Shown here: positions 6,983 through 60,053 of the stretch, piece by piece | Layout of the letters: every line of letters begins with the position of its first letter | Position numbering within the stretch: position 1 is the stretch's first letter | Assembly (NCBI GenBank): GCA_030529665.1 | Contig: JAUMWL010000002.1 | Location: forward strand, 3,986 to 67,985 | Reading direction: 5' to 3' | Length of the DNA stretch: 64,000 bases | DNA from: Coriobacteriales bacterium | GTDB lineage: Bacteria; Actinomycetota; Coriobacteriia; Coriobacteriales; Atopobiaceae | Made by a program: the position numbers and the translations under genes | The notes under the pieces: generated by a model | What the model was told of the DNA's origin: nothing | The model's input: only the letters and a program-made list of their open reading frames with translations | Databases searched by the model: none

Positions 6983-7606
6983 GTGAGCTACATCCCTGAT
7001 GAGCGATTTGTATTCTCGAGCTGTGGACGGCGATTGAACGGAGGCAAGCCTGATCTTGAGGCATTCCTAAAGACGAGGGTGCGGAAGATAGTAAACTGGG
7101 GCACCCTCCTATACACCTCCAAGCACGTAGGGACCCGCTACGAACGCGGTACGTGGAACTACGACTTGGGGGAGGGGCTTTCCTACACGATGGAAAGTCC
7201 GGGAGGGCTTCTGTATAGGGACTTTGTCCTGACGGCCCGCAGCTTCATCGAAGTTCGTATCCCGGGGAGTAACGTACGCGGATGTCAATCGACTGATTTG
7301 TCGGTTCAGGAGGCCGTTGAAGGCTGGTGTCCAGAGGCGGGAACACTTCGCACCCTCCTCCTGTTTCCAGCCGCCCACGATGCCTACTTCTCCTTCTTGA
7401 ACCCGCTGTCGCTTGACCTTTATTCGAGGGAGAGCATCGGCCTGAGGTGCGACACGACCCCCTACGATAGGGAGCAGGCAAGCGTCGTCGATTACATCAC
7501 GATCGAGGCGAGAATCCATCCCGTGGGAATCAAGATGGCGGCTTTCCGAATTCGTGAGCGCGGGTGGCCATACAGCGCGGTCGAGGAATACGGGAACAGG
7601 TGGTAG
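6983..7606 (+). CDS. Hypothetical protein
   Basis: The GTG start at 6983 is preceded by TAGGAGGAG. The 207-aa ORF has balanced composition, and I recognise no motif in it. Confidence 0.5.
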   Translation: MSYIPDERFVFSSCGRRLNGGKPDLEAFLKTRVRKIVNWGTLLYTSKHVGTRYERGTWNYDLGEGLSYTMESPGGLLYRDFVLTARSFIEVRIPGSNVRGCQSTDLSVQEAVEGWCPEAGTLRTLLLFPAAHDAYFSFLNPLSLDLYSRESIGLRCDTTPYDREQASVVDYITIEARIHPVGIKMAAFRIRERGWPYSAVEEYGNRW

Positions 7607-7834
7607 CATGTCGCTTGGATCAGCCCGCAGGATAAGCCCGCCTTCTCGCGATGCGCTTTTTTAGCCAGGTCGACCGTTTGATAGGAACGCTCATCCGGAT
7701 GTCCCAGGCATTTCGACGAATGCGTTGTGTAGGAGCGACTACCACTCTCGCCACTTCCACTCCGTTTCTACGACACCCTGGAAGCCTGGCTTGAAAATGA
7801 GCTTTGCCAATCTTGGCGCACTGACTTCCCCGGA

Positions 7835-40064: not shown

Positions 40065-40787
40065 ATGATGTCAGGTGGGTGTTCGGCTATGTACGACGGT
40101 ACCCTCGATGGTCTTATGGAGCTTGCGCTCGACAACGACGGGCTGCTCACGACTGCGGAAGACAGTCCTTTCAACGATCCTGTTTTCGGGTTCCTCTTCC
40201 GCATTGCGTGGGCACTGTTCGGGCTTGGCGGCTCGATTGCGAGCAGGCTGGGCCTGCACGGTTTTGACTGGTCACTGTTCTTTGCGGGGCTGGTGGCGGT
40301 AGGTACCCTCTTCATCGTCTACGTCGCCTTCAGGGCGACTCGCATGCTCCTCGGTCGCGATGTCGAGTTCGAGTACTGGAAGTATCTGAGGACGTGCGAA
40401 GCATGCCATGTTGAGCCGAGCACCTCCTCGTTCGCGTTTCGCCCCCAGAAGTCGTTTCTCGTCATCGTGCTGTCGCGATTGCGCCCCTTAGCCTTTGCTT
40501 TCGTGGCGCTACTCCTGTTTCTTGCGCTATCCAAGTTCGCTGTTGCGATGGCCCCCAACACGGTCTTCGGTAGCGATCCTTTGGGTAGCCACGCGCGGTA
40601 TCTTGCCGACTTTGCGTTGACGCTCATTCTCCAGATTGCCATACGATTGTTGGTGGTCGTTCTCGTAATGTGGGTGTCATACGTCGTGTTTCGACGAATC
40701 GTGTCGGCACTGTCGAGGACGGCCCTATACGCCACAATCGAACGCCGTATGTCAAAAGGCCGCGCAAAGGTGGTGCGGAACCGATGA
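40065..40787 (+). CDS. Polytopic (about 4 TM) membrane protein, translationally coupled to the downstream STAND NTPase
   Basis: Four hydrophobic segments are FGFLFRIAWALFGLGG, SLFFAGLVAVGTLFIVYVAF, LAFAFVALLLFLALSKFAV and LILQIAIRLLVVVLVMWVSYVVF. The start is uncertain: ATG 40065/40068, or ATG 40089 preceded by AGGTGGG. Its TGA (40785-40787) overlaps the next gene's ATG (40784-40786). The N-terminal 158 codons of ORF 39591-40787 are judged non-coding. Confidence 0.6.
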   Translation: MMSGGCSAMYDGTLDGLMELALDNDGLLTTAEDSPFNDPVFGFLFRIAWALFGLGGSIASRLGLHGFDWSLFFAGLVAVGTLFIVYVAFRATRMLLGRDVEFEYWKYLRTCEACHVEPSTSSFAFRPQKSFLVIVLSRLRPLAFAFVALLLFLALSKFAVAMAPNTVFGSDPLGSHARYLADFALTLILQIAIRLLVVVLVMWVSYVVFRRIVSALSRTALYATIERRMSKGRAKVVRNR

Positions 40788-43700: not shown

Positions 43701-45010
43701 TTGTGTCCTCGCTTCTGTCGCGTGACGTCCTGGCATGCACGTATCCAGACGGGGTTTTTGTCATCCGGCCTGCCGTGGAGACCGCTGGACACTGGATTTC
43801 GGTACCGCATACGGGAACGTCCTCGTTGTCTGCCACCGGGGATACGCTTGCGGCCTTGTCGGATTACGGCCTCGCAATTCGTTCGACAGCGCACGAGACG
43901 ATGGAGAAGCTGCGAGCAATCCCCGTCTTCGTGAGCCGTCGTCCCATCGACTACGAGCGAGGGATGCTCTCCTTGTTGCCACGGCTGGTGGCATCATTCG
44001 TCAGGATGGACATCGCGCTTCATACGGCTCGTAGCTGGGCAAATCTGCGCCTCAATGCTCTCGGGGAGGCCGTAAAGCGCTGGGGAATCGGTGCGCTACG
44101 CGATGGTGGCGCGGTGCCAGGCATCGGCAGGGCGACTCTTGTCGTACAGTCTGTGGCCGGGTGGACTGCCGTGGCCTACGAGTTCTCCGACACGGTTGCC
44201 CTGTATGACTTAGGGTGGAGCGAGCGCATGCGAGTGGATCGGCTGAGATTTAGCGCGTTTGACCCTCTGTTGGGCATGGACCTGTCTGCGGATGGCGGGC
44301 TTCTCCTGATTTGCCGACCGTCATCGGTCACCGTCTATCGCACGCATGATGCAAGCCGAGCGCTCGAGATCAACCTCACGGGTGGTACGCTCGTGTCGGC
44401 GGCATTGGAGGAGGGTGGAATAGTTGAACTGTATGGACTTAGCGGAACGACTCGGCGATTCCAGGTTGGGAATCGACCAAAGCGTTGCGAGGTGGTCGAT
44501 TGGCCAACATATCCACGAGACGACGTAGCTGCGACCGTGCTCTACCCCACCGCTTCCGGAGCAGAATGCGTGGTCGTCAAGGCCCGCAAGGGCATAACGA
44601 CCACTACCTACGACACGTCTTACTATTGCGGGAAGAATCATAGCTTGCTCTACTGTGACGGAGCCTTTTTCCTCGATGGCGACAAGTCAAAACCCTTCCT
44701 ATCGTCGGAATACGATTTCGGCCAGTGCCTACGGGAGGAGCGTCAAAAAGAGCCCGACGACTTGATTCGGTTCATTAGGGAGAAGAACGATTTGACGAGT
44801 AGCCTTTATGACCTCGACGAACGTTTTCTGCTACTCGTCTGCAAGAGGCTCTCGTCGGTAATCCTGTTCGACATCGACTCTCTGTCGGTTGCCGATGCCT
44901 ACAGGACCCAAGATGAAATAATAGGCTCCCGCTTTGATGCCGACGCAAGCGAGGTACTTTTGTTCAGTAACTCATCACCACACATTTCAAGACTGAGATT
45001 GACGATCTAG
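40784..45010 (+). CDS. DUF4062 (TIR-like) - NACHT/STAND NTPase - beta-propeller-like repeat protein
   Basis: The N-terminus is FRLFVSSTFLDFVNERSIINERL...GYGFEVVDLRWGI (DUF4062 signature). Walker A is LWVHGPSGSGKTSLLQRF and Walker B is PLLVVIDGLESL. The C-terminal ~650 aa has WD40-like blade motifs (e.g. ITSLCWLAGSELAVGLSDGRIVTYDV). The start is ATG 40784 (MRRKTFRLF). Confidence 0.8.
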   Translation: MRRKTFRLFVSSTFLDFVNERSIINERLSTRLESYCERYGYGFEVVDLRWGIGEIASENQLTLDICLNEIARCKLYAPRPHFLLMLGGRYGSIPLPTELAPNAYETIVSTLEAEESSLVRHWYEFDDNCLGGTYRLKPRKGRFRDYSDWSGVKRGLLTAIGSAIDANPAMASDGLTLASMTEHEFNAALLKHDMCEGSVVVLREGGENEEKAHELRKRAAELMNSKGLADRVVELRQGEPGYEQSFEDEVFRLLTQLVDSEVRASARDDADTILPSRETSRVFVGREHEIGLLREYASSSSRSVLWVHGPSGSGKTSLLQRFVDEYPHRKAFVSYGRSEDTFTMGGAVREIRRQLADGNGAEVVPYVDGSNLPEALLSELSAKANEHAPLLVVIDGLESLMNNGDVNENVLPSTLPAGAKLVVSWAHEDARPFALPFAGQELVLGALSDEEALLAVDARLALGGRRVAPDNQREAIRDSFRVAATPLQATLISNIVSRWSSGFRDTELPLTPREAALAYIDGAFLLLGHGRELVLHSMALVCVAPFGISEREILDVLQSIGGVREEFLGQDRYGHSGDKLPFVVWSRLYYDLRECLETVLFKGVPVVRFVHSIFKDAVHSAHEPYCKRAVEALLRYYSSRPAHVDAPWTAPDTMRAANLPALLGTAGRDDELAELLCASEELDAVLQIGDYERALDALARLGGRPDGLLREDVVAMSWYLRAHRGTLSCFPRSLPAAMSHELGVDRRSRLGRGANGLADSSGSLIPVPHPPNSGIALSLDGDEIAIWHGPWVYVYGPGLTANCRIYNTADSGAGLVITSLCWLAGSELAVGLSDGRIVTYDVHVPPPSLVVSVALESPEYLSYSSCLDVVVASTKSSLVAIDAHRTDVRLLAELREESSWCMSADGLAVHVRDRRSVRSIAIVDGTTITERRVHADGHLVGELPDGRLLLDGYSIIDAHGTAVYFKVPRQAEIVSSLLSRDVLACTYPDGVFVIRPAVETAGHWISVPHTGTSSLSATGDTLAALSDYGLAIRSTAHETMEKLRAIPVFVSRRPIDYERGMLSLLPRLVASFVRMDIALHTARSWANLRLNALGEAVKRWGIGALRDGGAVPGIGRATLVVQSVAGWTAVAYEFSDTVALYDLGWSERMRVDRLRFSAFDPLLGMDLSADGGLLLICRPSSVTVYRTHDASRALEINLTGGTLVSAALEEGGIVELYGLSGTTRRFQVGNRPKRCEVVDWPTYPRDDVAATVLYPTASGAECVVVKARKGITTTTYDTSYYCGKNHSLLYCDGAFFLDGDKSKPFLSSEYDFGQCLREERQKEPDDLIRFIREKNDLTSSLYDLDERFLLLVCKRLSSVILFDIDSLSVADAYRTQDEIIGSRFDADASEVLLFSNSSPHISRLRLTI

Positions 45011-45163: not shown

Positions 45164-45373
45164 TTAGTAAGACCAGCGTCCTTGGGAGTCCTGGAACCGT
45201 TCCCCGGGACGACGCCAGTTGCCTTGGCCGTCAACGAAGTCCTCACCAGGCTTGCGCCAATTGCCACCTCCGTCCACGTAGTCTTCTCCCGGCCTGCGCC
45301 AGTTGCCGCCCCCATCAATGTAGTCGTCACCATCGTTGCGCCAATAGCCTGCGCCGTCGTAGAATCCGCCCAT
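45164..45373 (-). CDS. Small Gly/Trp/Asp-rich tandem-repeat protein (69 aa)
   Basis: The sequence is MGGFYDGAGYWRNDGDD / YIDGGGNWRRPGED / YVDGGGNWRKPGED / FVDGQGNWRRPGER / FQDSQGRWSY. A purine-rich SD (GAGAGGAGAGGGAAGAAGGA) precedes the ATG at 45373. Confidence 0.6.
   Translation of the reverse strand: MGGFYDGAGYWRNDGDDYIDGGGNWRRPGEDYVDGGGNWRKPGEDFVDGQGNWRRPGERFQDSQGRWSY
45171..45373. repeat. About 4.8 degenerate tandem copies of a 42-bp coding repeat
   Basis: Unit boundaries read directly from the sequence are 45171, 45213, 45255, 45297 and 45339. Each full unit starts CGCCA[GA]TTGCC on the plus strand and encodes the 14-aa unit above. Confidence 0.8.
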
Positions 45374-45434: not shown

Positions 45435-45755
45435 CTATTCCTCTTCAGAGAGGATTGATCGTGCCAGCACGTCGATTGCGGTGTCGAAGTTAGCTTGCTT
45501 GGCCTTTGAATCCTCTCGTTTGAGACGGATGACTTGCAATGTGCCACCGATAATCGCACAAAGGATGCAAACTGGCACTACTCCACCGATTGCCAACCAC
45601 GGGAACAGGTTATCAATGGCGGCTTGCCCGAGGAAGCCGACTAGAAGCCCAAGGAGCCCACCGATAACCATTCCCTTTGCTATGGCTGTGGCGTATTCTC
45701 CCTTCGAATGCATCCAATAGTAGTCAGCGGGCTTGTAGTTCGAAATTTCTGACAT
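45435..45755 (-). CDS. Small membrane protein (2 TM)
   Basis: ATG 45755 follows GAGAGGTGA. The hydrophobic helices are GMVIGGLLGLLVGFLGQAAI and WLAIGGVVPVCILCAIIGG. Confidence 0.55.
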   Translation of the reverse strand: MSEISNYKPADYYWMHSKGEYATAIAKGMVIGGLLGLLVGFLGQAAIDNLFPWLAIGGVVPVCILCAIIGGTLQVIRLKREDSKAKQANFDTAIDVLARSILSEEE

Positions 45756-45794: not shown

Positions 45795-46022
45795 CTACAT
45801 CCTGCTCATGATTCCCAGGAACCCGAGAACCAGCTTGAGGACGGCCAATGCCGCAAATAGCCAAGAAAAGAGCAGAGAGCACAAAGCCTTGACTGCGATG
45901 CTCGCGGGCTCCCTTCGATCAAGCCACTCGTTCCTACCGGTCATAAACTGCCACCCTTTGTACGCTCCCCACGCGCAGATTGCGAGGAGGGCTACCTCCA
46001 GTACTCCGCCGTTTCCGCCCAT
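45795..46022 (-). CDS. Small membrane protein (75 aa, 2 TM)
   Basis: The ORF is trimmed to ATG 46022 (MGGNGGVLEVALLAICAWG...), 8 nt after AAGGAGG. The second helix is LCSLLFSWLFAALAVLKLVLGFLG. Confidence 0.5.
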   Translation of the reverse strand: MGGNGGVLEVALLAICAWGAYKGWQFMTGRNEWLDRREPASIAVKALCSLLFSWLFAALAVLKLVLGFLGIMSRM

Positions 46023-46217
46023 GCAAGAACCTCCTTCTCGTCTTGCGCTCCGTCTGCCTGCGGTTGCGCGACCCTTATCATGGCTATCATTATCCGATGG
46101 GTCTGTGTCGCCATTTGCGCAATGCATCACGGCCCAATTTGCGGATTCTCGTATAAGCGCATCGATTGTCTCGGCCCTTTCCCCTACACATGCACACGAT
46201 TCATGACGGGCATTGCC

Positions 46218-46286
46218 TGAGTGGTAACCGCTTCTGGTACCGCTCTAAACGTTTTGAGTTGCGGTACCAGAAGCGGTTACCACTCA
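46218..46286. repeat. 26-bp perfect inverted repeat (69-nt hairpin)
   Basis: TGAGTGGTAACCGCTTCTGGTACCGC-(17 nt: TCTAAACGTTTTGAGTT)-GCGGTACCAGAAGCGGTTACCACTCA. It lies in the intergenic space between two minus-strand small-membrane-protein genes. Confidence 0.85.
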
Positions 46287-46416
46287 CATTGCCGCTGACG
46301 CAATACGACTCTCACACTATTCAATCTGCTGACACACTGTCGCATTGATTTCATCAACATGAAGTGCAAAACGTATATCCCTTTGCTACACGCGTTGGCG
46401 ACACGGATTGTCTCAT

Positions 46417-47135: not shown

Positions 47136-47622
47136 TTGTTCCATACCATAATGGCACTCGTTTCAGGACGTCGGTCAGGTGCTCCAGACACCGGCTCCAG
47201 TTTCAGTGGCAACGAGTTTTTCAACAAACCGGAGGTGACGCAGCGTGGAGGGATTCGGAGGAGGTACGAGGAGCTGCTGTCCCAGAACGAGCTGCTGGCC
47301 ACGTGCGACATCGTGAAGGAGATGCTCTTCAGAGTCTACTTCTACAGGCAGGAGAAGGGCATGAGCGACCGTCGCCGAGGTCTGCCGCGGAACCGGGAAC
47401 GGGAACTTCGAGTGGTTTGCGCGCCTCGTGCAGAACCTCATGGACGGAATCGTCGCCCACGCCAGGCACCAGATCTCGTCCGGCAAAGTCGAGGGAACGA
47501 ACAACATGATCAGGTCTCTCAGGAGGGCCGGGTACGGCTACCCCGACGACGAGTACTTCTTCCTCAAGACCTTCGATTCGAGCAGGCGCTACTCACCAGG
47601 CAGGGAGGCGGTGGTGAGGTAG
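47136..47622 (+). pseudogene. ISL3-family transposase remnant (C-terminal ~160 codons, one frameshift, N-terminus missing)
   Basis: Frame A reads ...YEELLSQNELLATCDIVKEMLFRVYFYRQEKG. After a shift near 47360-47375, frame B continues NFEWFARLVQNLMDGIVAHARHQISSGKVEGTNNMIRSLRRAGYGYPDDEYFFLK. The latter is the conserved ISL3 C-terminal block (SNGxxEGxNNxIKxxKRxAYGY). Confidence 0.7.
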
Positions 47623-47654: not shown

Positions 47655-48542
47655 TCAAGACCGTGTGTTGCACTTACCAAGGGTGTCCTCGAAGGTGCGA
47701 AAGGTGTGCTTGTCGTGAGTGCGGTCGAGCACCGCGAACACAGCGATTAATGGTGCACTGCTGGTGTTCTGCACCTCCATGAGGGCCTCGCGGAAAGCTC
47801 GGGCAACGAGATGAGGGCTGTTTCCAAAAGCGCCGCAGCCCCAAGCGCCTAGCACTAGAGCACGGTAGCCATTGCTGGTGGCGAACAACAGCATTCCAGC
47901 AATTCGTGCCTTAATCGTCGCAAAAAGCTCCGTTTCCGTTATGGAATCGAGCTCAGGGACGAACGGTGCGGCACATGTGAGAACCGCAATCTCACGAGGT
48001 GTTCCCAGGTATTCGTAGTCTGAGTTGCGAAAGACCTCCACGTACGGTGATATCATCATCGCGTGGGAGAACAAGTAGGTGCCCGACTCCTTGTTCGTTC
48101 TATAAAATGCTTGAGCTTCATCGGATGTGAGCGAGGCGTAAACGGTTGTCCTACGACAAAGATCCTCCTCTTGGACAATGGACCCGTGCATTTTTCCGCC
48201 CCCTGGTTCGTAAGGGTTGGCGAAGTTTAGCACAAGCGGTGGCCTGTGTTCCTTCGTATAACGGTCCGTGATGCTCTTTGCGAGTTCCGCGCCCTCAAGT
48301 GAGTCTACGTTTTTGACAACGACTGCGGTCTCGCCAGTTACCGTTGAGTTTGAATCGGGTACTTGTCCATCAGCCGTTCGGGCGATTTCAGCGGGGGTAG
48401 CCACTATTGCGGACTGATGCATCTCTGGAGACTGACTAAACGTTACTTGATTACACGCATCGACATACATGTTTGCCTCTATGTCTGCCTGCGTCTGGAA
48501 GAAAACACTTCTGAGTCGTTCAACCGTTCTCGAGTCCATCAA
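47655..48542 (-). CDS. Bacterial PARG-type macrodomain protein (TIGR02452/DUF2263-like)
   Basis: The PARG signature GGG-x7-QEE is present (LNFANPYEPGGGKMHGSIVQEEDLCRRT), and GAWGCGAFGN lies near the C-terminus. The start is TTG 48542 or ATG 48539, just downstream of the radical-SAM gene stop at 48549. Confidence 0.75.
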   Translation of the reverse strand: MMDSRTVERLRSVFFQTQADIEANMYVDACNQVTFSQSPEMHQSAIVATPAEIARTADGQVPDSNSTVTGETAVVVKNVDSLEGAELAKSITDRYTKEHRPPLVLNFANPYEPGGGKMHGSIVQEEDLCRRTTVYASLTSDEAQAFYRTNKESGTYLFSHAMMISPYVEVFRNSDYEYLGTPREIAVLTCAAPFVPELDSITETELFATIKARIAGMLLFATSNGYRALVLGAWGCGAFGNSPHLVARAFREALMEVQNTSSAPLIAVFAVLDRTHDKHTFRTFEDTLGKCNTRS

Positions 48543-48548
48543 AGGGGG

Positions 48549-49586
48549 TCATCCTCCCTTCTGGTTATGCCCGCGTATCCCTTCCGGGACACTACGAAAG
48601 ACTAGGCATCCGCCCATGCACTTTCCTTCGGAGCGCTTATCACATTCGTTGCACTCTGGTCGAAGCGGCATCGTATACGCGTCAGCGTCTATCGTTCGAA
48701 CGTAATAGTCGGCCAATGCACCCATGCCATCAAAATCGGCGATGTTTACCTTAGTTGTTGAAGACAGGCCGAAGCATCGTGCTGCGACTAGGTCCTGTCC
48801 AATTACGATAGACGGCTCGCAGCGGTTGAGACCATTGAAGAGGTTGCTTGTGTGAAGTGCTTTCCATCCTTTCGGATTGGCTTTGTATCTGCTGCAGAAT
48901 TCTTTCTCGTCGTCCATCAATAGGCAGAACGGTATTTTATTGCAGTCAAAGAAGGGGACCACCCCTCGGTCGAAAACCTCGCGGCAGAAGTATAGCGTTA
49001 CGGGCTTCATACGCTCGAAGAATGCGAAGGCATCTTGGTTCTCCCGCCTCTTCACGTCGGGAACGGTGACGGACACTCGGATACTGTCGGTTGGATATCT
49101 ATCAATAAGGTCGAGCATAAATCCATAGTCTGCGTTCTCTCCGAAGAGGTTGATGCCAAGGCCGATATGGTTCCAGTCGCAGCGTTCCCGCACCAAGCCA
49201 ATGTTGTTCCGTAAGCGTCTGTAATTCGTTTGTCCGATGGCGTCTGGGCTGTTGACGTTTATGAGCATGTGGAACTTCTTGTTGCTGAGCACATTGATAA
49301 AGCGATCGATTAAGAGGCCATTCGTGAAGAGGTCGACGTCCTCAATGCGTTCGTCCTCGACGAGCTGACGCATGAGGGCGCAGAAATCCGGGTGGGTCGT
49401 CGGCTCACCTCCGATTATGCCGACGTGATGATACGCATTGCCTTTGCCAACGATGAAATCGACCGCCTTCTGAAAGTTCTCCTGAGAGATATCACTCTGC
49501 CTCTCGCAGGAGAACTCATCCGAGAAGCAGTACGGGCAGCTTAGGTTGCATGCGCCCGTGAGCATAATGTTGCCTGCTATCATCAC
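48549..49586 (-). CDS. Radical SAM / SPASM-domain maturase
   Basis: The CxxxCxxC cluster is ACNLSCPYCF. The C-terminal Cys-rich SPASM-like region is CEPS...ARCFG...CNECDKRSEGKCMGGC. Confidence 0.85.
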   Translation of the reverse strand: MMIAGNIMLTGACNLSCPYCFSDEFSCERQSDISQENFQKAVDFIVGKGNAYHHVGIIGGEPTTHPDFCALMRQLVEDERIEDVDLFTNGLLIDRFINVLSNKKFHMLINVNSPDAIGQTNYRRLRNNIGLVRERCDWNHIGLGINLFGENADYGFMLDLIDRYPTDSIRVSVTVPDVKRRENQDAFAFFERMKPVTLYFCREVFDRGVVPFFDCNKIPFCLLMDDEKEFCSRYKANPKGWKALHTSNLFNGLNRCEPSIVIGQDLVAARCFGLSSTTKVNIADFDGMGALADYYVRTIDADAYTMPLRPECNECDKRSEGKCMGGCLVFRSVPEGIRGHNQKGG

Positions 49587-49605
49587 TTCTCCTTATGACA
49601 CGTAG

Positions 49606-50466
49606 CTACAGACTGTTCGCTACTTTGCTCAAGGCAGACTCAAAGAAGTCGTCTTCGGCCTGTTGCTCGGCAGCGGTGCGCGCCCTTCCGTTTGGCGACC
49701 AGTTGCGGGCGAATTCCGCTTGCGCACGAACTCGATCCTCGTAGTCCGCAAGCTCAAGCTCGTTATACCGATTGTCCTCTGACTTGTGGAAGAAACGGAC
49801 CTTGATGAGCTCAGGTTCGCGAAGTGGCCTCAGGCCGTCGTGGTCAAGGCCGAAACTTTTCCGAGTAACGAGTGGATTGTTCTCGATGTCTCGTATAACA
49901 GCACAACCCGGATATTTCCTCTTCAGGCTTCGGTAATTGACGTCATATGGATCCCATGGCCTTACATGGTAACCATGAGCACGTAGGACTCTCATTGCCT
50001 GGACGTCGTCGTTTGCGCAAATGGCATCTGCTAGCCCGGAATGGTAATCTCCAACATTGAAGAAGTCTCTTTGGAAGCCCCGAGACGCTAGCAGCTCCAT
50101 GCATTCGAGTGACCCATAGTACCAAGCAAGCGCGAGTGGCCCAGATGCGCGCCCGTCTGGTCCGTAGGTCTCGTCACCATAGAATCCGTCCGCGCCATGC
50201 CTGAGGTCATAGCTTCCAAATAGACCGTGGTTAACAAGCCAGTGCATAGTCTTGTATTCGCCAGCGACATGGTACAAGGCTCTTTTCAATGTGGTCTCAT
50301 CGCATCGGCTCAACCGGGCACCCGCATGGTACAGCCGGTCTAGACTCGCATAGTCGTTTTCGAGAATGGCCTTAATGAGGGGGTTTACGATTGGGCGGGG
50401 GGTGCAAAAGCTATCGCCGTTCCATCCAAGCGTCCAGTTATAGCGAATCGGATCGTTGACACCCAT
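49606..50466 (-). CDS. Ankyrin-repeat-like protein
   Basis: Three ANK-like units were seen by eye: PLIKAILENDYASLDRLYHAGARL, LALAWYYGSLECMELLASRGF and LADAICANDDVQAMRVLRAHGY. It sits between the two radical-SAM genes on the same strand. Confidence 0.45.
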   Translation of the reverse strand: MGVNDPIRYNWTLGWNGDSFCTPRPIVNPLIKAILENDYASLDRLYHAGARLSRCDETTLKRALYHVAGEYKTMHWLVNHGLFGSYDLRHGADGFYGDETYGPDGRASGPLALAWYYGSLECMELLASRGFQRDFFNVGDYHSGLADAICANDDVQAMRVLRAHGYHVRPWDPYDVNYRSLKRKYPGCAVIRDIENNPLVTRKSFGLDHDGLRPLREPELIKVRFFHKSEDNRYNELELADYEDRVRAQAEFARNWSPNGRARTAAEQQAEDDFFESALSKVANSL

Positions 50467-50527
50467 AACTTACAGACTCCTTTCCTTGCTCTTATCGTCG
50501 AGCCGGATTTGTTGGCATTTCGGGATA

Positions 50528-51646
50528 CTAATTATTGGCGAGTAAAGCCTTGATATGCTCGTCAACAAATTCCTTGCGTAGCTCTGCGACCCTGCAGAAG
50601 AAGGGGTCCACGTGTTCCTCGTCGCCATAGGCAAGCTTGAAGTTTGCCACACAGTGCTCGCAGTATCGAATCTTATTGCAGGTGATGCAGGGGTATCTGT
50701 CAGTTGCCTTCTTGTCCACGAACTCGCGTTGCAGGTGTTGCCAGCCCTCGTCGAAGGAGCCGTGGCGGAGGTCGAACTGACGATACGAGGCTCGAACGCA
50801 ACCCTGCATCTTGTAGTCGGACGTAATGAACACGTGTTGATTTGCAATGGAGCAGGGATAGAGGTAGCCGCCTCCGAAGCGCTCGACCGTCTGACGCGGC
50901 CGGGTGTCTATCTCCCCCTCGAGCAACTGACGGGCTACGTCCTCCCAGAAGGTTCGGCGCCCCATGTCCTTAATGTCGAAGTCGAACGCCTCCTCGGGTG
51001 TAAGGCGGAAGTCCATAGGTTTGGTGGAGCCGTCGCTCATGGGATGCACATCAAGGATGATGACCATGGGCACGCCAATCTGGTTGCCGAACTCGCGTAC
51101 CTTGTAGAGGTCGTCGATGTTTTGCTCCATTGCGACGAACTTGAGCTCGAAGGGTATTCCATTCGCACGTAACAGGTCGAGAGCGTCCATGAACTTTCGG
51201 TAGCTGCCTTTGACTCCAGTGACGGCTTCGTAAGACTCCTCGGAGTAGCCGTACATGCTGGTGCTGATCACCTCGGGTGGCAACTCCTTAAAGAGTTCGA
51301 TGTGATGCTCGTTCAGCAGGGTGATATTGGTGAGCAACGATACGAGCACGCCTTTACCCTTGATATAGCGGTACAGCTCTTCGAAGTCCTTTCTGACAAG
51401 GATTTCTCCTCCTGTAAGGTAGGCATCAAGCAGACCTCGCTCGCACAATATATCAACGATGTCCTTGAACTCCTGCGTGGTCATGTCATCATGGCCACGA
51501 CCTGGTTTCGCGTAGCAGTGTACACAGTTGAGGTTGCACTTTGCCGTGAGTTCGAATCCAGCGGTGAAGGGTGCCCGGATACCCTCGAAGTGCTCGTCAA
51601 TGAAGTCGTTCATCTTTTGCGAATGCATGCAATAGGACTCAGCCAT
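50528..51646 (-). CDS. Radical SAM / SPASM-domain maturase
   Basis: The CxxxCxxC cluster is KCNLNCVHCYA. The C-terminal auxiliary-cluster cysteines are YPCS...QGCVR...YPCITCNKIRYCEHC. The ATG at 51646 lies 2 nt after the PqqD-like gene stop. Confidence 0.88.
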   Translation of the reverse strand: MAESYCMHSQKMNDFIDEHFEGIRAPFTAGFELTAKCNLNCVHCYAKPGRGHDDMTTQEFKDIVDILCERGLLDAYLTGGEILVRKDFEELYRYIKGKGVLVSLLTNITLLNEHHIELFKELPPEVISTSMYGYSEESYEAVTGVKGSYRKFMDALDLLRANGIPFELKFVAMEQNIDDLYKVREFGNQIGVPMVIILDVHPMSDGSTKPMDFRLTPEEAFDFDIKDMGRRTFWEDVARQLLEGEIDTRPRQTVERFGGGYLYPCSIANQHVFITSDYKMQGCVRASYRQFDLRHGSFDEGWQHLQREFVDKKATDRYPCITCNKIRYCEHCVANFKLAYGDEEHVDPFFCRVAELRKEFVDEHIKALLANN

Positions 51647-51648
51647 GA

Positions 51649-51930
51649 TTAGACCCCTTTCCCGTCATCAAGCAAGACGCCCATCTCTGCTAACTGGTCA
51701 ACGAATGAGGACACAGCCATCTTCTCTGGCGAGCCTTCCTCGAGTCCATACTCGGATGCAACGCTGGCAACGAGGTCGGCAGCGGTGGTGCAGTCGTTGG
51801 CGGCCCTCCAGATATCGGCACCAACATCATTGAGCGCAATGGGGTCATCGCTAGCGTCGTTCTTCCTTACTGGCATGAGGATGTGATGCCCGTATAGGTC
51901 ACGCATGACGAACGCGTCGTTCTGTTTCAT
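51649..51930 (-). CDS. PqqD-family RiPP recognition element protein
   Basis: The sequence MKQNDAFVMRDLYGHHILMP...LNDVGADIWRAANDCTTAADLVASVASEYG...FVDQLAEMGVL has the size and pattern of PqqD-like peptide chaperones. The start is set at ATG 51930 after GGGAGAGGAA. Confidence 0.7.
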   Translation of the reverse strand: MKQNDAFVMRDLYGHHILMPVRKNDASDDPIALNDVGADIWRAANDCTTAADLVASVASEYGLEEGSPEKMAVSSFVDQLAEMGVLLDDGKGV

Positions 51931-52147
51931 TTCCTCTCCCTGAAATAGCATCTCAGAGCCGCTACTTAGGATGGCGCTGACGCAGCTTAGCGCAAGCTCA
52001 AACTTGTGGCATCTCCTTGACGTCGACACACGCTCTTTTTGTGGTCCGTCCAGAATACTGGAGCACAGCTAGAGCGGCTGGGTTCTACCAAGGATTCATC
52101 TCACGTCGCGAAGTATTCCAGCTGTAGCGACTGTAATCTTTTGTAAA

Positions 52148-52172
52148 GGGGCACGAAGCGTACTCGTGCCCC
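52148..52172 (-). terminator. Intercistronic hairpin between the precursor gene and the PqqD gene (candidate attenuator)
   Basis: GGGGCACGA-(7 nt)-TCGTGCCCC forms a 9-bp stem. On the transcribed (minus) strand it is followed by TTTACAAAAGATT. It lies 29 nt downstream of the precursor stop. Confidence 0.5.
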
Positions 52173-52200
52173 AGGTTGTGAGCCTCAGAGCTCGCCTGTG

Positions 52201-52320
52201 CTACTTGCCCTGGTAGCAGCACGCCTTGAACGTGCAGTGGTACGGGTTCTCCGGCCCGTAGGCGGCCTCCCTCGTTGATTTGCTGAGGACAGTCATCTGC
52301 GGATACTCAAATTTCTTCAT
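52201..52320 (-). CDS. RiPP precursor peptide (39 aa, Cys-rich C-terminus)
   Basis: The sequence is MKKFEYPQMTVLSKSTREAAYGPENPYHCTFKACCYQGK. ATG 52320 follows GAGGGGGTGA. It is the first gene of an operon encoding PqqD and two rSAM/SPASM enzymes. Three Cys lie in the last 11 residues. Confidence 0.65.
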   Translation of the reverse strand: MKKFEYPQMTVLSKSTREAAYGPENPYHCTFKACCYQGK

Positions 52321-54299: not shown

Positions 54300-55835
54300 T
54301 TAGGGCTTGGGTCTTACTACCATCAGCCGTGCACTTCTCACAAGGGGGATGAGTTGGCGGACGGCGTCACGGTCGTACTCCTTGATTCTTTCGCTCAGCC
54401 TGTCATACGGCACGAGGTATGGAGAGGTCTTCTTTTCCGGATCGCCGCCGCTAGAGCTCTTGTCGAGGGTCCAACCCGCCTCAAGCCTCTCCCTCATCCA
54501 CCTGTCGTGTTCTAGGCGTGCGAGTACCTCGATCTGCTCGTCCGTGAACGAGGTGACTTCCTCGTACTCGCTGGCCCGCTCCTCGGGCACAAGCAGGTAG
54601 CCGAGTGCGCGCACCTTGTTGGGAACGTGCTCCGCCTGAGCGTAGTTCGATCGCCGCAGGTCTAATGGCTGGTCCTCGACCCTCTCGTATATCACCTCTA
54701 AGCCCTGCTTGCGCCTCAGCGCCTTGTAGGTCTCGAACTTGGCGGCCACGATGCGGTCTACCATCTCGGTGAGTCGTGCCTCAGCTCCGTTCATGCAAGC
54801 TTTCATGTCTTCTCCGTCCAGATAGGGCCTGTGATAGCTCCGCGCATGCGCGAGGAGTGTTCTTGAGGCAAAGACTGTCTCATTCACTGGCGTGAGGCCG
54901 AGCCTCTTCGCTAGCGGGTCTATGTCAATCGCTTGGTTAAGGTGCCTAGCATACGGCGGTGCGGCGAGGCTTGAGTAGCTGAAGTACCCAACCGACTCTT
55001 CGAGGAAGTTGAGGAAGTCGTCGATTGCGTCGGCGGAATGTCGTATTCCGTTGAGTGGTAGGTCGTTGCGGATTAGGTGGTACTTCAGCGCGCCAAGGTA
55101 CCCCATGTCCAGTTCCAGCGGGTTTGGTTCAAGCATGCAGTGGGCGCCAACCACGTGCGACGGGATCTCGGAAAAGAGTGTGCCGAATAACGGCGCGCGT
55201 GCGACGAGTTCTCCTACCATTAGGGCCGCGCTCAACTCAAAATCAACGACCGTCGCGCGGATGTCTGCTGGTCTTTTGCCGAAGCGCCGTACGCATACGT
55301 TCTCGCATCGCAAGTCACGATGGTACACACCTGCCTGGTGCGCGTTATGCAGCTGTGCGTACACGTCGAACAGTATTTTGAGGTTTTCCAGCTCTCGCTC
55401 TGGGGTTCCGGGCGCGTGGAGGATTGGCCGTTCCCCGTGCTGACCGGCTTTGTTCCGTAGAATCTGGGCGAGGTTCTCGCCCGCGTCTCGCTCGACGATT
55501 ACGGGTGCCGCGACTCCGGTTCCGGTGAAGCGGTGTTGGGAGACTGCCAGCAGCTCCGGCCCGACGCCTAGGCTCGTGAGCAGGCCGAGATTGGCGCACT
55601 CGTCGCCGAAGGCGACCATAGATGTGGGCTCGAACGCCACTGCACACGCCGCCACCACTTCGCTTTGGACCCCGCTTTCGAAGGTTCCGCGATAGATTCG
55701 TTTCCGCTTGGATGAGACCAGTGGTGTCTGTGCGGGGTTGTACGTGAATCTCCAGTTCCCGTATGTGTCCTCGATTATGCCTGACTCTGCCGTCTGCGGC
55801 TTCGTGGATACGTACTTGGCCGTGGCGTTAATCAT
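54300..55835 (-). CDS. Protein-kinase-like domain fused to a C-terminal RyR domain
   Basis: The catalytic loop is GVYHRDLRCENVCV, and VVDFELS replaces DFG with DFE. I could not find a clear beta3 VAIK lysine. The C-terminus LARLEHDRWMRERLEAGWTLDKSSSGGDPEKKTSPYLVPYDRLSERIKEYDRDAV matches the RyR-domain consensus (W...GW.YG....K..P.LVPY..L.E..K..DR). ATG 55835 follows GGGAGGG and overlaps the PP2C gene by 8 nt. Confidence 0.75.
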   Translation of the reverse strand: MINATAKYVSTKPQTAESGIIEDTYGNWRFTYNPAQTPLVSSKRKRIYRGTFESGVQSEVVAACAVAFEPTSMVAFGDECANLGLLTSLGVGPELLAVSQHRFTGTGVAAPVIVERDAGENLAQILRNKAGQHGERPILHAPGTPERELENLKILFDVYAQLHNAHQAGVYHRDLRCENVCVRRFGKRPADIRATVVDFELSAALMVGELVARAPLFGTLFSEIPSHVVGAHCMLEPNPLELDMGYLGALKYHLIRNDLPLNGIRHSADAIDDFLNFLEESVGYFSYSSLAAPPYARHLNQAIDIDPLAKRLGLTPVNETVFASRTLLAHARSYHRPYLDGEDMKACMNGAEARLTEMVDRIVAAKFETYKALRRKQGLEVIYERVEDQPLDLRRSNYAQAEHVPNKVRALGYLLVPEERASEYEEVTSFTDEQIEVLARLEHDRWMRERLEAGWTLDKSSSGGDPEKKTSPYLVPYDRLSERIKEYDRDAVRQLIPLVRSARLMVVRPKP

Positions 55836-56655
55836 GCAACCCTCCCATTGTGGGTCTCCGTGTGCCGCGATGAAATCTAGCAACCAAAGCGGTCGAGTCG
55901 TCACGCGAGGGTCTACCAAGCACTATCTTTGCTGCGGTTTCCCTTGCGGTTATTTCCGTAGCGAGAAGTCTACCGATTTCCTCACGACCAGTAGCTCGCC
56001 ATGCGCCGTCGGTGCAGACTGCGATGCAGTCGACATCGTCGATACTATCACTGACAGTGACCATTCGTCCATCGTTGCTCTTTCCCAGTGGCGGGGTCGT
56101 GCCAAAGAGGTCTGCGTCGAGGCTCGAGACGACTTCGTGCGGCTCTCGTCCCCTCTTCAACACAAACAAGGCAGTATCGCCAGCCCAAGACGCTTCCAGC
56201 TTCTTGCCACGTAGGGCTATGACCACTAGGGACGTACCGCTTCTTAAAGAATCGATGTCCGACACGAACCTCATGACTTGGTCTTGTGCCGCAACGACTG
56301 CCAATTCCGTAGATCCATTCCTTTTGAGGACGCGCATTGCCGCGTGGCAGGCATACCGAGCCACGGCATCACCGAGTGGCGCGCCTCCAATTCCGTCGGC
56401 TACGCATGCGTACATTTTCTCTCCGAGAAGCACGTAGTCTTCGTTCGGTCGTCCATCCTTTCCGACGCTGCAATAGTCGATGTCGATTGCGATCGGATTG
56501 TGTGTCTCGCCCATCACGTCGAGCTTTTCCATAACAACCAAGGTGTCCTCCTCGTTCCACCGAACCTCGTGTTTTATCTGGCTAATCCATACGCCTTTCC
56601 ACCCGCAGACAGCACACGGCATTTGATGGCCTGCCAGTAACGCATGCGATTCCAA
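55828..56655 (-). CDS. PP2C-family phosphatase
   Basis: Motifs are NEDYVLL, YACVADGIGGAPLGD and IAVCTDGAW. The start is uncertain: TTG 56655, ATG 56622, or ATG about 56532 downstream of GAGGAGGA. Confidence 0.7.
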   Translation of the reverse strand: MESHALLAGHQMPCAVCGWKGVWISQIKHEVRWNEEDTLVVMEKLDVMGETHNPIAIDIDYCSVGKDGRPNEDYVLLGEKMYACVADGIGGAPLGDAVARYACHAAMRVLKRNGSTELAVVAAQDQVMRFVSDIDSLRSGTSLVVIALRGKKLEASWAGDTALFVLKRGREPHEVVSSLDADLFGTTPPLGKSNDGRMVTVSDSIDDVDCIAVCTDGAWRATGREEIGRLLATEITARETAAKIVLGRPSRDDSTALVARFHRGTRRPTMGGLHD

Positions 56656-57185: not shown

Positions 57186-60053
57186 ATGCGGTGCAACCAC
57201 TGTGGTGCCGAGAACAGAGACGATGCCAAGTTTTGTGGGACATGCGGTCTGCCTATTATCGACGACAGGAAGAGGCGTGGGCAAAGCGCTTTTCGAAGGA
57301 ATTTCGCCTTGGCAATCTCGGTGGCGCTGATAGCAGTCGTGGCGGTGGTCGCATTGCCGCACTTGGTACTGCGCGATGGTGAAGGCGACGGGCATTCAGA
57401 TGTTTCGTCGGTGGAGACAGATGGTAGACATGCGCATGAGCTGCGCCATAACTCGGAGGGCCTTCCTAGCTTCATCATGGGTGAGTTTACGACCAGAAAC
57501 GTAAAGGACAAGGATGACGCGCTTGACGCGGTCGTGGATGCTTCGGGGCTTTTGGAGGTCGATGAAGCCAGGGACCGTCTCAAGTTTAGTCGCGAGGACA
57601 CGGTTGGCGAGTTGACCTTCTACCGCTTTGACCAGTGCTATAAGGACATACCAGTATTCGGGCGCGATATCGTGGTCGTGGTCGATGGGACGGATGTCCC
57701 GAAGGCGTTGTCGGGGGCCATTTTTGCCGGATCAAGCATCGGGACAACACCCAAAATACGCGCTGATGAGCTTGACCCAAAATCTGACGTTGCTCCATAT
57801 CTCAGTTCGGCAGAACTCGTCATTTGGCCAAAGACGAACAATGACGGCGAGCTGTGCTGGAGAATCGAGACGCCGGATCACCTCTACCTCTACAGCGCGG
57901 AGACGGGAGAGCTGGTCGCAAGCTTTGGTACCGTGAGCTACGAGGGGGAGATGCGAAGGGGCAGGGCGAAGAACTATGGCCTTGAGCTTGACGCACTGTT
58001 TGAGGATGACCTCTACATTTCCGAGGACACCAGTCGAAACATACACGTCTTCGACGCGATGGTGCAGGAGATTGACCACGACAACAATTCGTCTCCGGGA
58101 AAGCGCAACGAGTCGGACTGCCCTCTCATGACAGACGAAGACAACGTTTGGGATCGTGATGATGTTGCGAAGGCCTTGGCGAACGTCGAGAGAGCGCACG
58201 ATGCGTATTCGAGATTTTATAGGAATGGCTATGACGACGGAAACGGCACCCTCAATGTTTTCATACGAGTGGGCTCCGACGCGGACAACGTCTCAAACGC
58301 ATGTTCTAACACCGCTGGCTGGGAGAGGGCCAGCAGTGATGGGAAAAGGGAGAGCGTGCCGGCCTTCATCGAGTTCAATACCCAGAATGGCATCTCGTAC
58401 GCCTGCACGCTGCACGAGTATACGCACCTCGTGCAGAGAAGCATATGCCCCATCAAGATGGATGTCATGGGGGAGTCAATACTCGAGGCATATGCCGACG
58501 TGATGGCGATCACGATTGACGAGCAGGCGTCATGGTCGTATGACGACAACTGCAGAAACATCGCCAATCCTCTTGACGAGAACACCTCGGAGGGCGGTCC
58601 CCACGCGATAAGCTACTCCGAAGGTGGTGCGTCCGGGTGGGGCAACGAGGCCCATCACAACAGCACTGCTATCAGCCACGCGGCGTATCTCATGTATGAG
58701 TCAGGCATGACATTCCACGAGCTGAGGACTCTTTGGTATTACTCCATGTTCCTTCTCAACCAGGACTCGGATGTATTCACCTGTCGCTCGGCAATCGAGG
58801 CCTCGGCTGTTCTGCTTGGGTATGACGACGAAAAAGTCACGGCGATAGGAAGGGCCTTTGATGAGGTGGGGATTCCGGAAGAGGTCGTGGAGACCACAAC
58901 CATACCGGGGAGGATCGAGCACTACGATGGCGAGGAAGAGGCGGTAGATAACGACCCCAGGGAGGTGGCAGCCGCTTTCGTCGGCATTTGGTACGACGAC
59001 TGGTCGTTCGACGGGTCAGTCGAGGTCGCGAATGATCGCTCCGTGGAAGACAGGTGCATGGCGCTCATAGACGAGTCCTCGGCGCTCTACGCATCGTTCG
59101 GCGTGGGCGACTACCAGAAGTCGGCGTACTCTGGCCTTGGCAGCGTGGAGACATGCGTGCTTGAGGAGCCGGTGGTGACGAGTGAGGACGGCAACACCTA
59201 CCGAGTCTCCCTGTGGTACACGAGCAAGCAGGAATCGAACGTATCTCCAGGTGCAATCGATCAGGAGAAGTACCAGTTCCTCGCCCAGAGCAGGCGCAGG
59301 GAGGCATCTTGGGATGTCACGGTGTCGGGAGACGGCAAGGTCTCGTCACTCTCGCTGGCACCTCGTGGGCCCTACGTTCTCTCGGGCGTGGTGAGGGTGC
59401 ACGAAGAGGATGTGTATGGCGAGAAGATCTCCGTGGTCTCACTGGCACTTGAGCAGCCGGTAACCTACCTCTATGAGTACAAGTGGACTGAAAAGGCGGA
59501 GGCGCGCGACGTGTTGCTCGAGTCGAGCCAGTCCAACTCTTTTGGCGAGTGGGCGGGGTATGACGGAAGTCCTGTGACGCTCGAGTGTGACGGCCTGCAA
59601 GGCGCATATCACGACACCTCTTTCCTCAACGTGGACTCAATCGCAACCGGCGACGTGCGTCTGATAAGCGCCGATGGCACGAAAAGGGGGACTGAGCACT
59701 CCACCGAAGACGTCGATGAGGTACAAGAGAACGGGCACGTTCCCTCCTCAGATTTTGACGGCAAGGACTACTGGGTCGTGTTCAAGGAGGGCTTCCGTGG
59801 GGGAAGAGTCGAGGCGTCGTCGTTCTCCGTAAGCGACGGGACGCCCGTCCTCGTCTGGGACAAGAGCCTCACGGTATCGGGCGCTGACGTCGAGGGCAAT
59901 GTCAGCCAATTCCGCCTCAACGACGAGGGAGAATGGGAAAAGATTGGCGAGTACGGCATCCCGACCGACTGGGCACTGGAGGTCCTCGCCTCCAATGTGC
60001 CCGTCGTCGATGCGAATGGAAGCAAAATTGAAGTACCAGATAGCCATGCCTAA
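57186..60053 (+). CDS. Membrane-anchored M4 (thermolysin-like) zinc metalloprotease with an N-terminal zinc ribbon and a ~400-aa C-terminal extension
   Basis: The zinc ribbon is MRCNHCG...CGTCG. The TM helix is FALAISVALIAVVAVVALPHL. An FTP/PepSY-like propeptide segment is TFYRFDQCYKDIPVFGRDIVVVV. The active site is HEYTH, with a Glu exactly 20 residues after the second His (ILEAYADV), as in thermolysin. HHNSTAISHAAYLM resembles the M4 C-terminal-lobe motif. Confidence 0.75.
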   Translation: MRCNHCGAENRDDAKFCGTCGLPIIDDRKRRGQSAFRRNFALAISVALIAVVAVVALPHLVLRDGEGDGHSDVSSVETDGRHAHELRHNSEGLPSFIMGEFTTRNVKDKDDALDAVVDASGLLEVDEARDRLKFSREDTVGELTFYRFDQCYKDIPVFGRDIVVVVDGTDVPKALSGAIFAGSSIGTTPKIRADELDPKSDVAPYLSSAELVIWPKTNNDGELCWRIETPDHLYLYSAETGELVASFGTVSYEGEMRRGRAKNYGLELDALFEDDLYISEDTSRNIHVFDAMVQEIDHDNNSSPGKRNESDCPLMTDEDNVWDRDDVAKALANVERAHDAYSRFYRNGYDDGNGTLNVFIRVGSDADNVSNACSNTAGWERASSDGKRESVPAFIEFNTQNGISYACTLHEYTHLVQRSICPIKMDVMGESILEAYADVMAITIDEQASWSYDDNCRNIANPLDENTSEGGPHAISYSEGGASGWGNEAHHNSTAISHAAYLMYESGMTFHELRTLWYYSMFLLNQDSDVFTCRSAIEASAVLLGYDDEKVTAIGRAFDEVGIPEEVVETTTIPGRIEHYDGEEEAVDNDPREVAAAFVGIWYDDWSFDGSVEVANDRSVEDRCMALIDESSALYASFGVGDYQKSAYSGLGSVETCVLEEPVVTSEDGNTYRVSLWYTSKQESNVSPGAIDQEKYQFLAQSRRREASWDVTVSGDGKVSSLSLAPRGPYVLSGVVRVHEEDVYGEKISVVSLALEQPVTYLYEYKWTEKAEARDVLLESSQSNSFGEWAGYDGSPVTLECDGLQGAYHDTSFLNVDSIATGDVRLISADGTKRGTEHSTEDVDEVQENGHVPSSDFDGKDYWVVFKEGFRGGRVEASSFSVSDGTPVLVWDKSLTVSGADVEGNVSQFRLNDEGEWEKIGEYGIPTDWALEVLASNVPVVDANGSKIEVPDSHA

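Follow-up and report, generated by a model that had tools for sequence, protein, structure and literature searches.

A putative radical SAM peptide operon with a linked PARG cassette in a Coriobacteriales bacterium, and its conserved precursor-PqqD-radical SAM core

A short cysteine-rich open reading frame (ORF), accompanied on the same strand by two radical S-adenosylmethionine (rSAM) enzymes and a macrodomain protein, raises the question of whether such genes constitute a single peptide-modifying pathway and, if so, what a macrodomain would do in it. The genes concerned occupy positions 47655-52320 of a 64,000-nucleotide stretch (here called the window) of contig JAUMWL010000002.1 (assembly GCA_030529665.1) from a Coriobacteriales bacterium. 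As described in a first-pass annotation made from the sequence alone, six co-directional, densely packed genes were found, all on the minus strand, and the precursor sequence was exactly as reported there. They encode a 39-aa precursor, a PqqD-family protein, an rSAM enzyme (rSAM1), a helical-repeat protein, a second rSAM enzyme (rSAM2) and a PARG-type macrodomain protein, and are separated by 270 nt (between precursor and PqqD, a gap which houses a hairpin) and then by 2, 61, about 20 and about 9 nt. Neither a protease nor a transporter is encoded inside the operon, again as first described, and no riboswitch or other known RNA was revealed by an Rfam scan of 44-54 kb. The reading favored here, at somewhat better than even probability, is that of a genuine rSAM operon for a peptide that is made on the ribosome and then modified post-translationally (RiPP), belonging to a mobile family, in which the helical-repeat, rSAM2 and PARG genes (the cassette) form a tailoring or control module of the same pathway.

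The core of this reading is a triad of genes. The precursor gene (52201..52320, minus strand) is preceded by a ribosome-binding site (RBS), GGGGGTG, located 5 nt 5' of the ATG, and its product is MKKFEYPQMTVLSKSTREAAYGPENPYHCTFKACCYQGK, with cysteines at positions 29, 34 and 35 of 39. The peptide family has a leader-like segment, FE[YF]PQM.[IV]L, and a core, AYGPE.PYHCTF..CC[YF].GK. The PqqD-family protein (93 aa; 51649..51930, minus strand) was recognized by PF05402 (E = 6.7e-9, 36.4 bits against a cutoff of 23.4), and an identical protein is named "PqqD family protein" at NCBI. It is presumed to be the stand-alone RiPP recognition element (RRE) which binds the leader for rSAM1, and in each triad locus its gene immediately precedes rSAM1. 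For rSAM1 (372 aa; 50528..51646, minus strand) the radical SAM domain was identified with PF04055 (E = 6e-23), with the Fe-S motif C37xxxC41xxC44 and seven invariant C-terminal cysteines (C265, C283, C320xxC323x5C329xxC332 and C351). Its SPASM assignment is by motif only, the arrangement being Cx2Cx5Cx2C against the canonical Cx2Cx5Cx3C.

An ORF of 38-42 aa and a PqqD gene precede rSAM1 in 11/11 independent canonical loci, namely the window, L001, L002-4, L005-7, L012, L013, L014, L134, L172, L173/4 and L180-3 (L-numbers are labels for comparison loci or contigs). Conservation of the short ORF upstream of homologous rSAM genes had been set beforehand as the check on the proposal of a RiPP-type operon, and that proposal is upheld. 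When the flanks of eight canonical loci were compared all against all, only the precursor, PqqD and rSAM1 were common to them. The conserved unit is on these comparisons a triad of precursor, stand-alone PqqD and SPASM-type rSAM1. It occurs in gut Firmicutes and in the Coriobacteriales metagenome-assembled genome of the window; a dedicated protease or exporter was found in none of the 11 loci, and scans of viral contigs recovered no rSAM1 and no helical-repeat gene.

The precursor is the best conserved part of the triad, with 70-95% identity across loci whose PqqD proteins are only 34-77% identical. Against L001, dN/dS was 0.023/0.68; among the pairs overall dN was 0.02-0.27, and dS was saturated in nearly all pairs besides that with L001. 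Because of the low dN, the saturated dS and the conservation across loci, the short ORF is taken to be a real gene under strong purifying selection, and a spurious ORF, considered as an explanation, was dropped on the same evidence. A search of 1.84 billion representative proteins returned a whole precursor family of 11 short representatives. The CC-aromatic motif was invariant across them, and in most of them CC is preceded, at a distance of a few residues, by a His and a Thr-aromatic pair. The precursor matches no NCBIfam or Pfam model; NCBI labels its homologues "hypothetical protein" and does not call the gene in the window itself. A full-text literature search on core motifs (AYGPE, YHCTF, CCYQGK, CCYEGK) yielded no relevant paper, the supplement of the rSAM compendium being outside its scope.

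Between the precursor and the enzyme genes, a 10-bp GC-rich hairpin was identified by RNA folding 3' of the precursor stop codon (52148..52172, minus strand), followed by UUUACAAAAG. The 86-nt stretch containing it has a minimum free energy of -31.4 kcal/mol (z = -2.95). A strict terminator scan did not flag the hairpin because its T-tract is weak, and it is a candidate partial terminator or attenuator.

Homologues of rSAM1 formed 192 clusters (E <= 1e-10), with 52-91% identity among the 120 matches listed. They come mostly from gut and rumen metagenomes, the named sources being Christensenellaceae, Eubacterium, Lachnospiraceae and Clostridia, and individual sequences were found in dozens to more than 100 assemblies (Christensenellaceae, Eubacterium, Lachnospiraceae). 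More distant rSAM1-like enzymes (31-36% identity) adjoin similar peptides, which end in ...RCSSSCCFYRDGATW in L177/L031 and ...AYGPEYGSSGWSACCYKD in L015. In L177 (1321-3732) a 392-aa protein, PqqD-like by eye in its C-terminal part though with no Pfam match, is accompanied by an rSAM enzyme 32% identical to rSAM1, and a 43-aa peptide ending RCSSSCCFYRDGATW lies 3' of that enzyme; two helical-repeat genes and a 436-aa rSAM enzyme are found downstream. A sister clade of rSAM1 (58% identity; L175) lacks the canonical precursor and has another Cys-rich ORF upstream (...KCSGCAECEWNSGVIPCGCF...; 7500-7736). A NUDIX-fold gene overlapping the rSAM1 stop in L175/L176 (9155-9742 in L175) was considered as a second link to ADP-ribose and dropped; it reads as a type-1 isopentenyl diphosphate isomerase, which we take to be the meaning of its HRAFS...NSCCSH motif. 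Loci with rSAM and PqqD proteins of about 33% identity, from Acidobacteria and other phyla, made up most of the genome scan; they were set aside as a different family with no recognizable related precursor.

The locus was compared with the described classes of rSAM peptides. No NCBIfam equivalog cutoff was reached by rSAM1: among sactipeptide and ranthipeptide models it scored 76.6 bits of 850 for AlbA, 73.6 of 625 for StsB, 53 of 300 for SkfB, 42.8 of 340 for PapB and 28.2 of 425 for the SCIFF maturase (TIGR03974), and no match to a curated sactipeptide, ranthipeptide or SCIFF maturase or precursor family (including CcpM) was obtained. What the locus does possess are the features of the generic RRE-dependent SPASM RiPP class, that is, a conserved short ORF, a PqqD-like RRE and the Cys motifs. 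The earlier statement that PqqD, an rSAM/SPASM enzyme and a Cys-rich precursor define a sactipeptide or ranthipeptide was too strong, since PQQ, mycofactocin and streptide-type systems use such parts too. The other statement of that annotation, that the core sequence is not a feature of the classes it knew, agrees with these scores and with the NCBI label of the precursors. By sequence comparison the locus represents a new family within the RRE-plus-SPASM class, the group which includes SCIFF, sactipeptides, PQQ and mycofactocin.

SCIFF and ranthipeptide systems (CteA-CteB, Tte1186; PapA-PapB) resemble the triad in having a short conserved Cys precursor and a single SPASM maturase in anaerobic Firmicutes, and in lacking a dedicated protease or exporter. 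They differ in that the RRE is fused to their maturase, whereas a separate PqqD is found here, and in having six Cys in 45 residues or CxxxD repeats instead of H-C-x4-CC-aromatic. We know of no macrodomain cassette in SCIFF or ranthipeptide systems. Sactisynthases (SkfB, AlbA, ThnB) likewise belong to the rSAM enzymes, carry auxiliary Fe-S clusters and have peptides with Cys as their substrates. Among solved structures, the nearest to rSAM1 in sequence is SkfB (E = 6.5e-13, or 8e-15 with the family profile), but the similarity is confined to the N-terminal core. Sactipeptide clusters normally include transporters, proteases or immunity genes, which are absent here.

The systems for PQQ (PqqA/D/E) and mycofactocin (MftA/B/C) have the same parts list as the triad, a short peptide, a stand-alone PqqD-family chaperone and a SPASM rSAM enzyme, with no exporter. 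The peptide might therefore serve as scaffold for a small cofactor, redox-active or metal-binding, and not be a peptide natural product. This is very improbable in our view, although several observations suit it: no locus has an exporter or protease, the whole peptide is very strongly conserved with an invariant CC-aromatic motif and a nearby His, and MftC and PqqE are among the better NCBIfam matches of rSAM1. These matches are nevertheless far under their cutoffs (83.8 bits of 265 for TIGR03962 and 72.3 of 381 for TIGR02109). The peptide ends in CCYQGK, without the C-terminal GVY of MftA, and the E-X3-Y motif of PqqA is absent, the Glu-to-Tyr spacing not being conserved. No pqqB/C-like or mftD/E/F neighbors were found here, and no PqqB/C/F or MftD/E/F equivalents or releasing peptidase in any triad locus. 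Furthermore, the triad lies on mobile elements and not beside dehydrogenase genes.

For the RiPP reading, a pathway may be outlined by analogy with PqqE, MftC, AlbA, CteB and SuiB. PqqD would bind the segment FE[YF]PQM.[IV]L and offer the C-terminal core to rSAM1, which would reductively cleave SAM, and the resulting 5'-deoxyadenosyl radical would abstract a core hydrogen, after which one or two crosslinks within the peptide, involving the invariant CC-aromatic motif, would form. The product would most likely carry thioethers from Cys to a carbon of an upstream residue, as in sactipeptides or ranthipeptides, or alternatively a Cys/aromatic or C-C link. Thioether-type crosslinks are favored, the invariant nucleophile being Cys and the characterized enzymes closest in sequence being sactisynthase-like. 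The absence of a protease or exporter from the 11 canonical loci, together with the conservation of the whole peptide, suggests a product that stays in the cell or makes use of a general export route, the view also held of SCIFF.

The cassette begins with the helical-repeat protein (286 aa; 49606..50466, minus strand). It had been called ankyrin-like, a label which is withdrawn: Ank_4 (16.1 bits, cutoff 22.7) and Ank_2 (15.2 bits, cutoff 27.3) both remained below threshold, and Ank models matched 0/6 homologues. A profile of the family gave only marginal DARPin matches among PDB sequences (E = 0.1-0.2), and an AlphaFold2 (AF2) model (three sequences) had a pLDDT of 52, being confident only for the helix pairs at residues 30-80. 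A word-indexed protein search returned only two relatives. Homologues adjoin rSAM genes or Trp/Arg-repeat peptides in L134, L110, L177 and L178.

Cys motifs identify rSAM2 (344 aa; 48549..49583, minus strand) as a second SPASM-like rSAM enzyme, with C13xxxC17xxC20 and eight invariant C-terminal cysteines. As the Fe-S motif begins at residue 13 and there is no N-terminal extension, it has no RRE domain. The AF2 model (pLDDT 82, pTM 0.84) had as its best full-length structural matches anSME (TM 0.61), SuiB (0.60) and CteB (0.58), which are SPASM enzymes that modify peptides or proteins. An ADP-ribosyl hydrolase was seen near several loci of the rSAM2 family (PARG in L104, ARH in L009/L093 and L098); that ADP-ribose hydrolases of two unrelated folds should recur in its vicinity is suggestive.

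The last gene (294 aa; 47655..48539, minus strand) was assigned with PF10021 (E = 5e-24, 85.8 bits against a cutoff of 23.5) and TIGR02452 (151.7 bits against 50), and matched Deinococcus radiodurans PARG (5zdb; E = 3e-29). Its GGG-X8-QEE signature, PGGGKMHGSIVQEED, and its diphosphate loop, GAWGCGAFGN, align to the D. radiodurans enzyme, and the product is solidly predicted to be a bacterial-type PARG with an intact catalytic motif. With the bacterial PARGs of T. curvata (3sig) and D. radiodurans it shares the fold family, GGG-X-QEE and the loop; it differs from them in being packed behind a SPASM rSAM gene in a RiPP operon, with no PARP or ADP-ribosyltransferase (ART) partner nearby. No described counterpart was found for a cassette of PARG, RRE-less SPASM rSAM and helical-repeat protein.

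Evidence that the cassette belongs with the triad came from two further loci. In L134, a low-GC contig from the metagenome scan, the six genes are all present and lie on a single strand, ordered precursor-PqqD-rSAM1-PARG-rSAM2-helical-repeat protein, with 18 nt between rSAM1 and PARG; identity to the window was 67% for rSAM1, 37% for PARG, 41% for rSAM2 and 39% for the helical-repeat protein. L008 contains memA and memB (small membrane-protein genes described below), rSAM2 (72% identity) and PARG (52%) in that order. Its first 352 nt align at 83% to the 3' end of the L001 triad locus, including the last bases of rSAM1, and a triad almost certainly lies just upstream of the contig, an inferred step. 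In a neighbor-joining tree of 69 rSAM2 homologues the window, L008 and L134 formed a clade (bootstrap 178/200). Since three rare families lie beside the triad at deep divergence and in rearranged order, the linkage is not due to chance. The cassette is on this evidence facultative yet genuinely linked to the triad, and has been inherited together with triads in no fewer than two lineages of deep divergence. Both the ankyrin-like gene and that of the macrodomain had been presented as parts of the operon: the recurrence of the six genes in L134 bears out their linkage, and the absence of the cassette from 8/11 canonical loci shows that they do not form one invariant unit.

Because of this co-inheritance, the cassette is interpreted as a tailoring or control module. 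We infer that rSAM2 would add a second, leader-independent radical modification, perhaps being recruited by the helical-repeat protein, and that PARG would strip the peptide, or a protein of the pathway, of an ADP-ribose-type group.

Several observations weigh against this account of the locus. Eight canonical triad loci have no cassette, and L172 lacks it though its rSAM1 is 85% identical to that of L134; the cassette is accordingly dispensable for the core product. Helical-repeat genes are also found in loci that have no canonical triad (L110, L178), where they track another peptide type, and most relatives of rSAM2 with 35-46% identity belong to an unrelated ACP/U32/AMP-ligase cluster. The PARG of L134 (6928-7887) lacks the GGG loop (HPVTNVRQEKCTQEEE), although QEE and the diphosphate loop are kept, and it may therefore differ from canonical PARG in activity. 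The operon yielded no ADP-ribosyltransferase, and neither rSAM1 nor rSAM2 is matched by the SPASM model of Pfam. As to the product, the type of crosslink is a guess from the class. The first-pass annotation had pointed to three Cys in the last 11 residues; this is true of the window peptide, but C29, like Glu24, varies in the wider family (some members have Lys, Asp or Arg in place of C29), and for this reason the crosslink acceptor cannot be named.

Part of this evidence would suit two separate modules, in which the triad is self-sufficient and the cassette is independent, with a substrate of its own (a 69-aa repeat peptide or the helical-repeat protein), the two being brought together by shared mobile elements. 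The peptide is encoded at 45164..45373 (minus strand), has G.WR.PGEDY[IV]D repeats rich in Trp, Arg and Asp, a strong RBS (GGAGAGGGAAGAAGGA) and no obvious leader, and may be a second class of rSAM substrate. A homologue (48% identity, E = 1e-12) lies between two helical-repeat genes in L178 (3273-3497), and another near a helical-repeat gene in L110 (6685-6795)/L116, neither L178 nor L110 having a canonical triad. The helical-repeat family thus accompanies CC-aromatic peptides and rSAM1-like enzymes in the window, L134 and L177, and Trp/Arg-repeat peptides in the window, L110 and L178. The many aromatic-X-X motifs of the repeat peptide are of the kind used by cyclophane-forming rSAM enzymes (PMC12912966).

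Two separate modules would also explain the triads without a cassette, and would be in keeping with an rSAM2 that lacks an RRE while the sole PqqD adjoins rSAM1. The first-pass suggestion that the two maturases may install different crosslinks on the precursor is conjectural, as rSAM2 lacks an RRE, most of its wider family belongs to another type of cluster, and the repeat peptide is close by as a second candidate substrate. The region has been shuffled, to judge from its rearranged gene order and from an ISL3 transposase remnant directly downstream of PARG (47428..47622, plus strand; PF01610 E = 1.1e-8, covering only the last 47 residues of the model), which marks a rearrangement parting the operon from memA and memB. 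Against separate modules, the cassette of L134 is packed onto rSAM1 and no repeat peptide is present there in 17 kb, nor is one found in L008; the triad-linked clade of rSAM2 implies long co-inheritance; and the repeat peptide of the window is located 2.3 kb past PARG, beyond the insertion sequence (IS) remnant and three other genes. We consider two modules a serious though less likely alternative, and retain the tailoring or control module as the preferred reading of the cassette.

The genes displaced by this rearrangement are memA (a small membrane protein of about 75 aa, assigned with a hidden Markov model (HMM); 45795..46022, minus strand) and, directly downstream of it, memB (a membrane protein of 106 aa; 45435..45755, minus strand). 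The former is the first gene of the L008 contig and comes directly after rSAM1 in L001 and L180; HMM E-values were 2e-40 to 2e-45 among the window, L001 and L008 and 6e-34 for L180. A 111-aa membrane protein at the memB position in L008 had no similarity to memB of the window by tblastn, and the latter gave a weak FtsX-like match below the cutoff (E = 1.8e-4). Between memA and a gene for a 108-aa membrane protein is a long hairpin (46217-46288, plus strand), which gave only sub-threshold matches to microRNA precursors and could be a terminator or an IS end. Another small neighbor, c28 (about 95 aa), lies right after rSAM1 in L172 (9128-9412), after the helical-repeat gene in L134 (9937-10230) and beside the repeat peptide in L110 (6809-7090). 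Pfam gave nothing for c28, for memA or for most of the other small neighbors scanned.

The unrelated cluster that contains most rSAM2 relatives includes a Gly/Ser/Tyr/Asp-rich small protein, an ACP-like protein, a SPASM rSAM enzyme, GNAT-like proteins, two U32-family proteins and an AMP-ligase. It was seen in L092-L124 and others (for example L102, 7472-13188) and is apparently undescribed.

If PARG acts in the pathway, the pathway might pass through a reversible ADP-ribose-type modification, with PARG as the dedicated eraser acting on a pathway protein or on the crosslinked peptide, for example at its conserved His, Tyr, Glu or Cys, and with an unrecognized transferase, possibly the helical-repeat protein, as the writer. 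This more specific proposal is doubtful. A precedent is minviopeptin (mic cluster, 2026), a triceptide and the first ADP-ribosylated RiPP, for which it was concluded that ADP-ribosylation can be an intrinsic step of RiPP maturation and a role in self-protection was suggested as possible (PMC12912966). In both cases an rSAM-made RiPP is accompanied by an ADP-ribose-handling enzyme in the cluster; however, mic encodes the writer MicD, an ART of about 23 kDa, and lacks a hydrolase, whereas an eraser-type PARG and no recognizable ART are found here, and the PasB-like rSAM lineage and precursor motifs of mic are unlike those of the window (PMC12912966).

The surroundings of the operon resemble a conflict island. 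With Pfam, a TIR plus beta-propeller protein (37034-39730, plus strand), a DUF4062-STAND NTPase of 1446 aa (40670-45010, plus strand), a kinase-like protein with a RyR domain (54300-55919, minus strand), a PP2C phosphatase (55828-56655, minus strand) and a TIR-STAND-TPR protein (60285-63548, plus strand) were identified. TIR domains produce ADP-ribose-derived signals, and those of the neighboring TIR domains may or may not be linked to the PARG.

A defence module could accordingly be imagined, in which PARG erases phage or TIR/STAND ADP-ribose marks or signals, rSAM2 acts on a nucleotide in the manner of viperin, and the triad is an unrelated neighbor. The two TIR proteins, the two STAND NTPases (one of them TIR-fused), the kinase-RyR protein and the PP2C phosphatase would suit this, as would the PARG and ARH folds near rSAM2-family genes and the weak PADLOC matches of both rSAM enzymes to pVip (E = 4e-13 and 2.4e-11). 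These matches cover only the N-terminus of the profile, the generic rSAM core (rSAM1 7-179/262; rSAM2 3-104/257), and the NCBIfam viperin model gave 34.4 bits of 180, so that membership in pVip is not indicated. PADLOC had no match for PARG, the helical-repeat protein or PqqD, and the resemblance of the rSAM2 model to peptide-modifying SPASM enzymes extends along the entire protein. In addition, the TIR and STAND neighbors are not kept in L134, L008 or L001, and neither rSAM1 nor the helical-repeat gene occurs on viral contigs. A defence module is considered very unlikely, and the peptide-modifying reading of the operon is retained.

A membrane-anchored M4 (thermolysin-type) peptidase with a Zn-ribbon N-terminus was also identified with Pfam (57186..60053, plus strand). 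In L008 a homologue follows PARG directly, and in L001 one is found no more than 5 kb from the cluster; synteny with the cluster was seen in close relatives only; the enzyme is a weak, low-confidence candidate for the leader peptidase.

The family is probably mobile. GC was 0.52-0.55 over 44-54 kb against 0.58-0.64 for most of the remaining window, and several loci are bordered by serine recombinases, a phage-type integrase or IS elements; L180, for instance, has three large serine recombinases, L012, L177 and L178 have resolvases, and L002 has an integrase. These flanking mobility genes and the dip in GC fit horizontal spread of the triad, perhaps between phyla. One 14-kb contig (L012, CAZGEX010000048.1) was binned to Sangeribacter (Muribaculaceae, Bacteroidota), and a flanking resolvase fragment on it is 92% identical to the L177 resolvase; it reflects either cross-phylum transfer or a binning error.

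The triad peptide family is common in human and animal gut metagenomes, yet it has no name, curated model or known product, and it bears on the question of what minimal rSAM peptides without an exporter or protease, such as SCIFF, do inside anaerobes. Three uncharacterized families, the helical-repeat protein, the Trp/Arg-repeat peptides and the c28 protein, travel with rSAM enzymes. ADP-ribose chemistry in RiPPs was first shown in 2026, and for a transferase only (PMC12912966). The PARG cassette, conserved at deep divergence, offers a testable entry to such chemistry in RiPP pathways and, if the eraser proposal were true, would be the first case of hydrolase-controlled ADP-ribosylation in the biosynthesis of a peptide natural product or in self-protection.

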